Part shown: piece after piece, positions 52,689-53,984 of the stretch
Layout of the letters: each line of letters begins with the position of its first letter
Numbering within the stretch: position 1 is the first letter of the stretch
DNA from: Candidatus Edwardsbacteria bacterium RifOxyA12_full_54_48
GTDB taxonomy: Bacteria > Edwardsbacteria > AC1 > EtOH8
Direction of reading: 5' to 3'
DNA: 64,000 bases
Assembly (NCBI GenBank): GCA_001777915.1
Contig: MFFN01000007.1
Location: forward strand, 4,807-68,806
The notes under the pieces: generated by a model
Databases searched by the model: none
Told to the model about the DNA's origin: nothing
What the model saw: the letters and a program-made list of their open reading frames with translations, nothing else
Program-made: the position numbers and the translations under genes

Positions 52689-52800
52689 TATATTACCCCG
52701 GCGACGGCTGATCCGCAGCATCCTTGGCCACGGCCTGCAATTCCTTCCTGCATTTTATATTCACTTTGCTCATCAACGCCAATCAGCACTTTATGTGGGT

Positions 52801-53645
52801 GTCGCATTAGCTCTGCTGCTGAATAAAGAAGGCCGTTAGGAATTTGGCATTGTCTGAGCAAAGCGAGTTTGTCAAATTTAGGCCTTCGGTCTTAAGGCTT
52901 CCGGGCAGAGGTATAGCGACAGGTTCTCTTTGCCACTTTCTCTTCAAAGAGAAAGTGGGGAACCATGGACCCTCTTACTTTTCTGCAGGCCAGAAAAGTA
53001 ACAAAAGAACCTTGTCCGCCCGGCAATTTCCGGCAGGAATGATACTCACGGACTAAATTCCTTGACCGGGGCGGGGAGATAAGCTCTGCAATGAATTTTT
53101 CACGCCCGTTTTGCTGGGGCAAAATTGCCGAAGGCGGGGAACCGAGTACCTAGGTCGCATCAGCTCTGCTGCTGACGAGCTTTTGACCTCATCCTTCCCT
53201 CTCCTAATGCTTTATGAGAGGGGTAGGGGAGAGGTGCGGGACAAAAAAGAAAAAGAACAGCATAATTCCCCAAAACGTGCCTTACTTTCTCTTGTGACCA
53301 AGAGAAAGTAACAAAGAGAAGTCTTGCCCGCCCGACAATTTCCGGCAGGAATGATATCCCCGGGCTAAATTCCTTGACCAGGGCTGGGTGCTATGCTCTG
53401 CAATGAATTTTCACGCCCGCTCCCGCCATAGCAAAATTGCCGAAGGCGGGGGAACGGGTAATGTCCGGTCGCATTAGCTCTGCTGCTGAATAAAGAAGGC
53501 ACTTAGGAATTTGGCATTGTTTGAGCGAAGCGAGTTTGTCAAATTTAGGCCGACGTCATAGGACTGCCAAGCAGAGGTTTAGCGACGAGCTGTTGACCTC
53601 ACCCTTCCCTCTCCTAATGCTTTAGGAGAGGGGCAGGGGAGAGGT
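52801..53645. repeat. Mosaic array of nested ~60-150 bp direct repeats (non-coding)
   Basis: R1 'gtcgcattagctctgctgctgaataaagaagg...gtttgtcaaatttaggcc' at 52801-52884 and 53469-53552; R3 (~150 bp, 'ccgcccggcaatttccggcaggaatgata...gcaaaattgccgaaggcgggg') at 53003-53153 and 53318-53468; R2 ('...gacctcatccttccctctcctaatgctttatgagaggggtaggggagaggtg') at 53154-53237 and 53583-53645; common 22-nt head 'gtcgcatYagctctgctgctga' three times. Confidence 0.8.
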
Positions 53646-53766
53646 GTTATAAGAGAAAGCGGAGGCTGGTTTTGAAAGAAAATAACAAAGGGACGATCAA
53701 ATGATCGTCCCTTAAATATTCCTGGCGCCCGCTCAAGGCGGACTACTGCCCAGCGAGAAGTCAAAC

Positions 53767-53842
53767 TGGTGGGCCCTCGGGGATTCGAACCCTGAACCAA
53801 CGGATTATGAGTCCGCTGCTCTAACCGTTGAGCTAAGGGCCC
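53767..53842 (-). tRNA. tRNA with CAT anticodon (tRNA-Met, or tRNA-Ile2 if lysidine-modified), CCA encoded
   Basis: Reverse complement 'GGGCCCTTAGCTCAACGGTTAGAGCAGCGGACTCATAATCCGTTGGTTCAGGGTTCGAATCCCCGAGGGCCCACCA' folds as a cloverleaf (7-bp acceptor, D-arm GCTC/GAGC, anticodon loop CTCATAA, T-loop TTCGAAT); one A-C mismatch in the T-stem. Confidence 0.6.
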
Positions 53843-53984
53843 ACAAAGTGCGGTAATGATAACATATCGATAGAGGGTTAGTCAATATCTTTAATGCCCG
53901 CAATGCGGCAGATCCTGGCTTGACATGCCGCGCCGGGGTTGTTATAATCATATGAAATTTAATGAATAACATTGATATCCAGAT

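Follow-up and report, generated by a model that had tools for sequence, protein, structure and literature searches.

In Candidatus Edwardsbacteria bacterium RifOxyA12_full_54_48 (assembly GCA_001777915.1), a mosaic array of direct repeats lies beside a tRNA(CAT) gene, within the 64-kb stretch of contig MFFN01000007.1 analyzed here (hereafter, the window, to which coordinates refer unless a locus is named). With moderate confidence, we read this region as the fixed, decayed remnant of a small (~0.8–1 kb), protein-free insertion at the 3' end of the tRNA gene, the mosaic array of which was later reshuffled by recombination. In the best-supported account, the insertion became fixed at the tRNA 3' end before the divergence of these species. 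The array (52801–53646) comprises three units in the same orientation, built from common modules, namely a head (three copies) and the repeats R1, R2, and R3 (two copies each), as well as short homopyrimidine/homopurine hairpins. It lies in a non-coding stretch of 1,078 nt between the stop codon of an AT-rich open reading frame (ORF; 52077–52688) and the minus-strand tRNA(CAT) gene (53767–53842), and the ORF list contained no ORF of more than 80 aa within the array.

The evidence for insertion comes from related genomes. At their tRNA locus, the array lies between the tRNA gene with its terminator and a 21–58-nt duplicate of the tRNA 3' end and terminator. In the syntenic locus L014, from the metagenome-assembled genome (MAG) DeMMO3_1, the far side of the array has 21 nt that exactly match the tRNA 3' end, at a distance of 766 nt from the tRNA. 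The far side of L044 carries a 55-nt copy of the terminator hairpin and tRNA 3' end (94.5% identity, E = 2e-20), and that of L042 a terminator copy and a degenerate fragment. L014 and L044 are homologous at the breakpoint and in the sequence next to it, which indicates a single ancestral event. In the window and in L035 the outer duplicate is gone, and the AT-rich ORF lies directly against the array, in the place where relatives keep the duplicated tRNA end.

The initial annotation of this DNA had proposed a comparison with related genomes for presence or absence of the repeats, and an independent locus, filled in L040 and empty in its orthologues, provided one. In L040 the array lies between the two copies of a 70-nt duplication (86% identity) of the 3' end of a SpoIID-like gene, with a spacing of 790 nt; the duplication spans 57–70 nt, of which ~38 nt are nearly identical. 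The spacer between the SpoIID-like and AAA_22 genes is 985 nt long in L040 vs 170–197 nt in the orthologous loci L054, L057, and L058, where the same pair of genes encloses only one copy of the gene-end segment and no array. The boundaries of the L040 insertion thus coincide with the duplicated gene end. Transposition is not a source of such flanking gene-end duplications, and their length of 21–70 nt points to recombinational integration instead. Short target-site duplications (TSDs) were absent from the mapped boundaries. As previously annotated, no integrase accompanies the repeats: no recombinase or integrase family was represented in the genes called up to 10 kb on either side of the window array, nor beside the other arrays examined. 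The sequence TTGTTATT, common to one element end in two loci, was judged possibly coincidental.

A plausible course of events would begin with a DNA molecule that bore ~60 nt copied from a host gene's 3' end, here the tRNA 3' end and terminator. It would recombine with the chromosome by a single crossover, relying either on an integrase provided in trans or on homology (Campbell-type recombination), and would leave the array between two direct copies of the gene-end segment. Later recombination with copies from other loci and strains would have duplicated, deleted, and exchanged units, and in the window lineage an AT-rich cassette ORF would have taken the place of the outer duplicate. This scheme involves a putative circular intermediate and a putative recombination enzyme.

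Several observations weigh against such an insertion. The window array has no flanking repeats, the outer duplicate being lost, and no flanking duplication of at least 14 nt was present at most other arrays (L016/L026, L032, L034, and L037). No circular or excised form, attP, or cognate recombinase was seen. The tRNA locus and L040 differ in how the array is oriented relative to its target gene. Arrays occur at the same position across species (the tRNA locus, the DUF4388–ABC locus of L016/L026, and L024/L034), which is as compatible with DNA that is old, inherited vertically, and possibly functional as it is with mobility. High conservation of modules could arise through selection and not exchange, and L043 and L044, two of the mosaic loci described below, may be chimeric assemblies.

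The initial annotation had described three interleaved repeat families beside the tRNA gene, with every R1 and R2 copy starting with the head. The head, R1, R2, and R3 were all recovered, but a better reading than independent families interleaved with one another is that the array consists of three units of ~310–350 nt, the last of which is truncated, and that each unit is made up of closed hairpin domains in series. The rule for the head holds for one of the two R2 copies but not for the other (53584), which follows the R1 tail. The 22-nt head GTCGCATYAGCTCTGCTGCTGA occurs exactly three times (52801, 53154, and 53468) and nowhere else in the 64 kb, where no copy is expected by chance. The head-to-head distances are 353 and 314 nt and the DNA between heads is itself repeated, in agreement with the earlier statement that this is not a CRISPR array, in which identical direct repeats of about 23–50 nt alternate regularly with unique spacers of comparable length. 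The repeat finder returned R1 at 52801–52884 and 53468–53551 (84 nt, 95% identity), R2 at 53174–53236 and 53584–53646 (63 nt, 94%), R3 at 53011–53099 and 53323–53411 (89 nt, 88%), and a second part of R3 at 53119–53148 and 53431–53460 (30 nt, 90%). Manual reading of the sequence extended R1 to ~120 nt, ending at the tail GCAGAGGTnnAGCGAC. All three are direct repeats, found within the 64 kb only in the array region. Unit 1 (52801–53150) consists of head-R1, two short hairpins (MC and MD), and R3. In unit 2 (53154–53462) the head is fused directly to R2, followed by half of the module MB, the hairpin Yh, and R3. Unit 3 (53468–53646) is head-R1-R2, after which comes a conserved tail (53647–53690). 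The features from the array to the tRNA gene are as follows.

52801–52920, plus strand: head and R1 domain of unit 1, a closed stem-loop of ~120 nt.
52921–53010, plus strand: hairpins MC (CCACTTTCTCTTcaaAGAGAAAGTGG) and MD (CTTACTTTTCTgcaggccAGAAAAGTAA) of unit 1, inside the helix AGGTTCTCTTTG / CAAAAGAACCT.
53011–53150, plus strand: R3 domain of unit 1, with the closing helix CCGCC-GGCAATTT / AAATTGCC-GGCGG.
53154–53175, plus strand: head of unit 2 alone; the R1 interior is absent and the head leads straight into R2, a junction also present in L030.
53174–53259, plus strand: R2 palindrome of unit 2, of the CCCTCTCC...GGAGAGGG type, then the 3' half of MB; 98% identical to L035 and L043.
53280–53322, plus strand: hairpin Yh of unit 2, in the MD position, with arms of the MC type.
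53323–53462, plus strand: R3 domain of unit 2 (copy 2).
53468–53587, plus strand: head and R1 domain of unit 3 (copy 2).
53584–53646, plus strand: R2 of unit 3 (copy 2), beyond which the unit is truncated.
53647–53690, plus strand: TAIL, the conserved inner end of the insertion beside the terminator, with 91–93% identity in L035, L043, L044, and L045.
53688–53713, minus strand: intrinsic terminator of the tRNA gene (terminator scan), which in relatives is part of the duplicated att-like segment (L044 and L042).
53714–53766, no strand assigned: extra segment of ~50 nt between the tRNA terminator and the tRNA 3' end, starting with TGGCGCCCGC and similar to the tRNA end TGGTGGGCCC.
53767–53842, minus strand: tRNA(CAT) gene, the 3' end of which is the integration target, with a promoter-like site at 53885–53856.

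The repeat family is new, low-copy, and limited to Candidatus Edwardsbacteria. A scan of species-representative genomes for the exact head gave 15 matches, about the chance number for 18 specified bases; three are true copies, and each of these comes from an Edwardsbacteria-like MAG (L014, L016, and L024, the last recognized by a later profile search). The same scan of metagenomes gave 16 loci, 15 of them real. Modules were mapped by BLAST and nhmmer, the latter with three profiles (R1, R3, and M-F, an alternative to R3), and were found at about 10 intergenic loci in genomes and metagenomes of Ca. Edwardsbacteria, most of them not near tRNAs. Adjacency to a tRNA is limited to the syntenic loci. 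The arrays of L016 and L026 lie between a DUF4388 gene and an ABC ATPase gene, that of L032 is upstream of purD, and those of L027, L033, and L034, which belong to the genome of the window, are upstream of a type I-C cas3-cas5d cluster and of genes for small secreted proteins. Arrays are present at further sites as well. In L033 (1201–7650) a 1.8-kb array is interleaved with the small secreted-protein genes just upstream of the type I-C cas3 and cas5d. Copy number is low, with one locus in the 64 kb and three recovered for the window's genome. Five module patterns searched against the viral collection (IMG/VR) gave two matches, both by chance and inside phage coding regions. A literature search on Edwardsbacteria repeats found nothing relevant. 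The module sequences and their grammar define a searchable repeat family for an uncultured phylum.

The arrays, 0.4–1.8 kb long, follow one grammar, [head-R1] - [MC | MB | R2(+MB half)] - [MD | Yh] - (INS1) - [R3 | M-F] - next unit, and start and stop at arbitrary points of the unit. The relative order and strand of modules are constant across loci, with every module on the same strand within an array, while the combinations vary. At syntenic positions in different species, the type of the R1 inner hairpin, the choice between R3 and M-F, and the number of units all differ. Some modules are 98–100% identical between genomes in which the flanking genes are 80–90% identical, which indicates recombination among copies and between strains. 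L044 is 97–100% identical to the window left of and into the array (4800–5437), and ~80% identical to the right of it (5678–7074); L043 shares its right flank with L044 and differs in the left. The switch of similarity partner in these two loci has two possible sources, natural recombination within the array and chimerism of the metagenome assembly at modules in common. Array modules explain metagenome contig breaks or partner switches at such sites in these organisms. R2-type palindromes occur in the loops of other modules in both orientations, and R2-type double palindromes (ACCCCTCCC..CCCTCCCC..GGGGAGGG..GGGTGGGGT) take the place of the 3' arm of Yh in L034 (919–985) and L031 (84–130). This suggests that the small R2-type palindrome itself inserts or recombines independently.

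Every domain of the units is a closed helix. The R1 head pairs with the tail, closing a stem-loop of 96–174 nt depending on the copy, and the inner hairpin is AATTTGGCA...TGTCAAATT or CCCCGCC...GGCGGGG. Both hairpins quoted in the initial annotation are present, and all short hairpins have a pyrimidine tract in the 5' arm and a purine tract in the 3' arm. Such an organization could mean that the repeats exist because of selection on an RNA fold, either as structured non-coding RNA genes forming tandem paralogues or as one long structured RNA or untranslated region (UTR). This explanation, the strongest of the competing ones, is nevertheless unlikely in our judgment. In its favor, among 15 distinct R1 copies 97.7% of the pair cells contained standard pairs vs 34–45% with partners slid, and the observed covariation score was reached by no shuffle. 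C-G/U-A swaps were found at the R1 head-tail pair, and the R1 hairpin was replaced with the stem retained; manual reading revealed a G-C to A-T swap in two copies of the R3 closing helix and one U-A/C-G swap in M-F. Whole units folded with a z-score of about -4 on either strand, R1 was ~9 kcal/mol more stable on the plus strand in 15 of 16 copies, and the position of arrays is conserved across species. However, only 2 of the 32 R1 pairs showed double-sided change, and most pairs were invariant. Folding preferred no strand for R3 and the minus strand for M-F and the L016 unit. Because the preferences of R1, R3, and M-F disagree, folding data name no transcribed strand, and folding energy, on which whole units also disagreed, was given up as a discriminator. 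The covariance-model search suggested in the initial annotation did not assign the units to a known family: with Rfam 15, nothing but tRNA was found in 51500–55000 even at E ≤10, and 18 related loci gave tRNAs only (a permissive scan of four and a gathering-threshold scan of 14). A promoter/terminator scan detected no consensus promoter or terminator in any unit; good sites were present only for the tRNA and the downstream gene, where sigma-70-type promoters are clear. Free swapping and deletion of modules is also unlike a single folded RNA. Of the earlier proposal of small structured RNAs, the conserved hairpin domains with a few compensatory changes therefore stand, while a match in Rfam, promoters or terminators of individual units, and a consistent strand preference are missing. 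A structured-RNA role is compatible with the conserved helices, which are its sole positive support. If the units are RNA genes, they would represent a new class of large structured RNA.

For a decayed insertion, too, the array may have some present function; most plausibly it would form a long, structured 3' UTR that belongs to the upstream ORF and runs to the shared terminator. Since no terminator lies between the ORF and the array, transcription in this form is most simply expected.

Somewhat less likely again than selection on RNA is mobilization of an interspersed repeat by a transposase encoded elsewhere, for example, RAYT or an insertion sequence (IS)-family enzyme. Such a repeat would be of the kind of repetitive extragenic palindromes (REPs) and their bacterial interspersed mosaic elements (BIMEs), BOX elements, or MITEs (miniature inverted-repeat transposable elements). 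The array is a composite put together from palindromic modules and lies in intergenic DNA, R1 is bounded by imperfect terminal inverted repeats (TIRs; GTCGC..AGCTCTGC / GCAGAGGT..GCGAC), and the R2-type palindromes in the loops of other modules, in both orientations, also favor this possibility. BOX elements of streptococci are likewise composites with variable internal modules, arranged as boxA-boxB(n)-boxC, with up to seven module types in S. suis variants (PMC3049150). The present family resembles them in having a few modules in a defined order and polarity, a variable module number, predicted stem-loops, an intergenic position, and possibly a role as long UTRs. However, BOX elements are abundant, typically shorter than 200 bp (67–637 bp), and possess TIRs and TSDs (PMC3049150), whereas the family described here is low-copy, with units of ~350 nt, above the typical size, in arrays of 0.4–1.8 kb; fixed polarity and modularity are shared, but array ends are arbitrary, without TIRs or TSDs, and the flanking duplications, where flanks are informative, are the 21–70-nt gene ends. 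BIMEs comprise more than 100 REPs per genome in alternating orientation and are associated with the RAYT transposase (PMC2817692). Like BIME/REP clusters, the array is an extragenic mosaic of palindromic units and short motifs, located downstream of genes and probably co-transcribed with them, but it has a fixed polarity and very few copies, with no RAYT seen; membership in this group was rejected on the single strand used within each array and the small number of loci. The earlier comparison with MITEs holds insofar as the repeats are interspersed, hairpin-forming, and inserted, as the filled and empty sites indicate. It fails in that inverted ends are confined to single domains (R1 and R3) and absent from whole units, short TSDs (2–10 bp in MITEs) are lacking, and few copies exist.

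Other repeat types were also considered and rejected. An integron attC array, in which imperfect palindromes of the form R''(RYYYAAC)...R'(GTTRRRY) separate the cassettes, was dismissed by inspection only, since the R1 arms GTTAGGA/GTTAAGA/GTTAACC have no inverse core partner and no IntI was present within ±10 kb. Likewise, interpretation of the head as a dif/Xer site or of R1 as attC was rejected by eye, no second inverted arm or core sites being visible. The LDR and SIB repeats of E. coli are long direct repeat loci of type I toxin–antitoxin systems and, like the array, consist of tandem intergenic units of a few hundred nucleotides at few loci with strain-variable copy number. In such systems each unit has a conserved small hydrophobic ORF and an antisense RNA. 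The short ORFs of the present units, however, are not hydrophobic, and their start or frame shifts between copies, so that a type I toxin–antitoxin locus was rejected.

A more speculative and rather doubtful extension of the insertion model is that the units are working parts of a sub-kilobase, protein-free integrative element. Such an element would consist of a small DNA circle, possibly a multimer of the ~350-nt structured unit, that inserts by a single crossover using a ~60-nt copy of a gene end and terminator as a portable targeting segment and gains new gene-end segments while moving. The hairpin domains would then serve as structures recognized by a recombinase or in replication, or as a guide-like RNA. 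Three gene-end segments were seen with arrays, from the tRNA, SpoIID-like, and LpoB-like genes. No autonomous relative of the array, such as an integrative and conjugative element (ICE) or an integrative and mobilizable element (IME), was found. If autonomous in any sense, the element would be among the smallest integrative elements known and an example of targeting by captured gene-end homology.

The idea that serial integrations at the tRNA gene left the repeat units themselves behind as decayed att sites appears improbable and is largely refuted. The locus is indeed an integration site, as the initial annotation supposed, with one decayed copy of the tRNA 3' end kept in relatives and an extra tRNA-end-like segment of ~50 nt abutting the tRNA in the window. 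However, a sensitive search of all arrays with the tRNA and terminator gave matches at the outer boundary only and none at inner unit junctions, which identifies the units as cargo and not att scars; moreover, the same units occur at loci without a tRNA.

Repeat collapse or expansion during assembly, which the initial annotation had listed as a possible refutation, or a chimeric join is highly improbable for the window. The partner switches of L043 and L044 might recall such an artefact, as assemblers or recombination can break at modules. However, nine fetched loci, taken from several JGI, NCBI, and ENA assembly records for Rifle groundwater and related samples and including k127 and k141 MEGAHIT assemblies, match the 1,296-nt spacer with 100% identity. 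In addition, GCA_001777945.1 has a region identical to the window array, and unit copies differ by 5–12%, enough to be resolved.

Among known systems, the array interpreted as a decayed insertion is closest in kind to cis-mobilizable elements (CIMEs; PMC5704250), and closest in anatomy to the BOX-type composite repeats (PMC3049150). CIMEs are decayed integrative elements that keep attL and attR but have lost the integrase and transfer genes, and among them accretion at the 3' end of tRNA genes or protein genes is frequent (PMC5704250). Similarly, the array is inserted at the 3' end of a tRNA gene (a protein gene in L040), has no integrase or transfer genes (no ORF of more than 80 aa lies within it, and the genes called within ±10 kb include no recombinase family), and adjoins a variable cassette, as in accretion. 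Boundaries of the attL/attR type with the target 3' end are present in L014, L044, L042, and L040 and absent from the window, where one att has been lost. Unlike CIMEs, the array is only ~0.8–1 kb long, contains no pseudogene remains of integration or transfer genes, has no known partner ICE or IME, and is a tandem mosaic of hairpin modules found also at sites without recognizable att duplications.

The array was correctly placed by the initial annotation between an AT-rich ORFan and the tRNA gene. Two features lie at its outer edge.

52077–52688, plus strand: AT-rich ORFan of 203 aa with a lipoprotein-like N-terminus and 26% GC vs about 60% in the flanks, a variable cassette.
52697–52800, minus strand: UPF, a pseudogene fragment at the array's head end that is a decayed copy of the 3' end of an LpoB-like lipoprotein gene (~190 aa).

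The product of the AT-rich ORF matched no Pfam or PHROG family. The ORF is 98–99% identical to its copy in L035 (4751–5362), while the flanking core genes are 80–90% identical, implying, from sequence comparison, a recent exchange of the cassette between the two genomes. Since unrelated ORFs replace it in L014 (a radical SAM protein), L044 (73 aa), and L042 (178 aa), the segment from the amidohydrolase gene to the array is a variable cassette site, which is consistent with accretion at a tRNA integration hot spot. The arrays mark hot spots of recombination and insertion beside recently exchanged AT-rich cassette genes. The presence of AT-rich ORFs beside arrays at 7 of about 11 loci was considered weak evidence of cassette capture because AT-rich islands are common in this genome.

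UPF corresponds to the last ~50 codons of the LpoB-like gene and aligns with sequences in L031, L041, L014, and L035; an intact 50–55-aa version is present in L031 and L043. It matches the C-termini of proteins of 188–233 aa, the gene of which natively follows a secretin gene. It was rejected as a gene of the element itself, being just the C-terminal fragment of a host lipoprotein gene, and is the third gene-3'-end fragment carried with arrays, beside those of the tRNA and SpoIID-like genes. On the other side of the array, the extra segment at 53714–53766 is absent from L035 and L044 and longer in L014, and it may be a second small integration scar. The tRNA(CAT) itself probably resembles E. 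coli ileX (tRNA-Ile2, lysidine-modified) closely, and not an elongator or initiator tRNA-Met.

Elsewhere in the window, AT-rich islands with 22–46% GC in this ~60% GC genome occur at 7200–12400, 23200–23600, 32800–34400, and 62000–63200, and the genome appears rich in foreign or cassette-like DNA. A separate 67-nt direct repeat (31205–31271 and 32597–32663, 87% identity) flanks a membrane-protein ORF. Its second copy is followed by a GGGAGAGG-type palindrome resembling R2 (32694–32714) and by an AT-rich island (31–35% GC) from ~32.8 kb.

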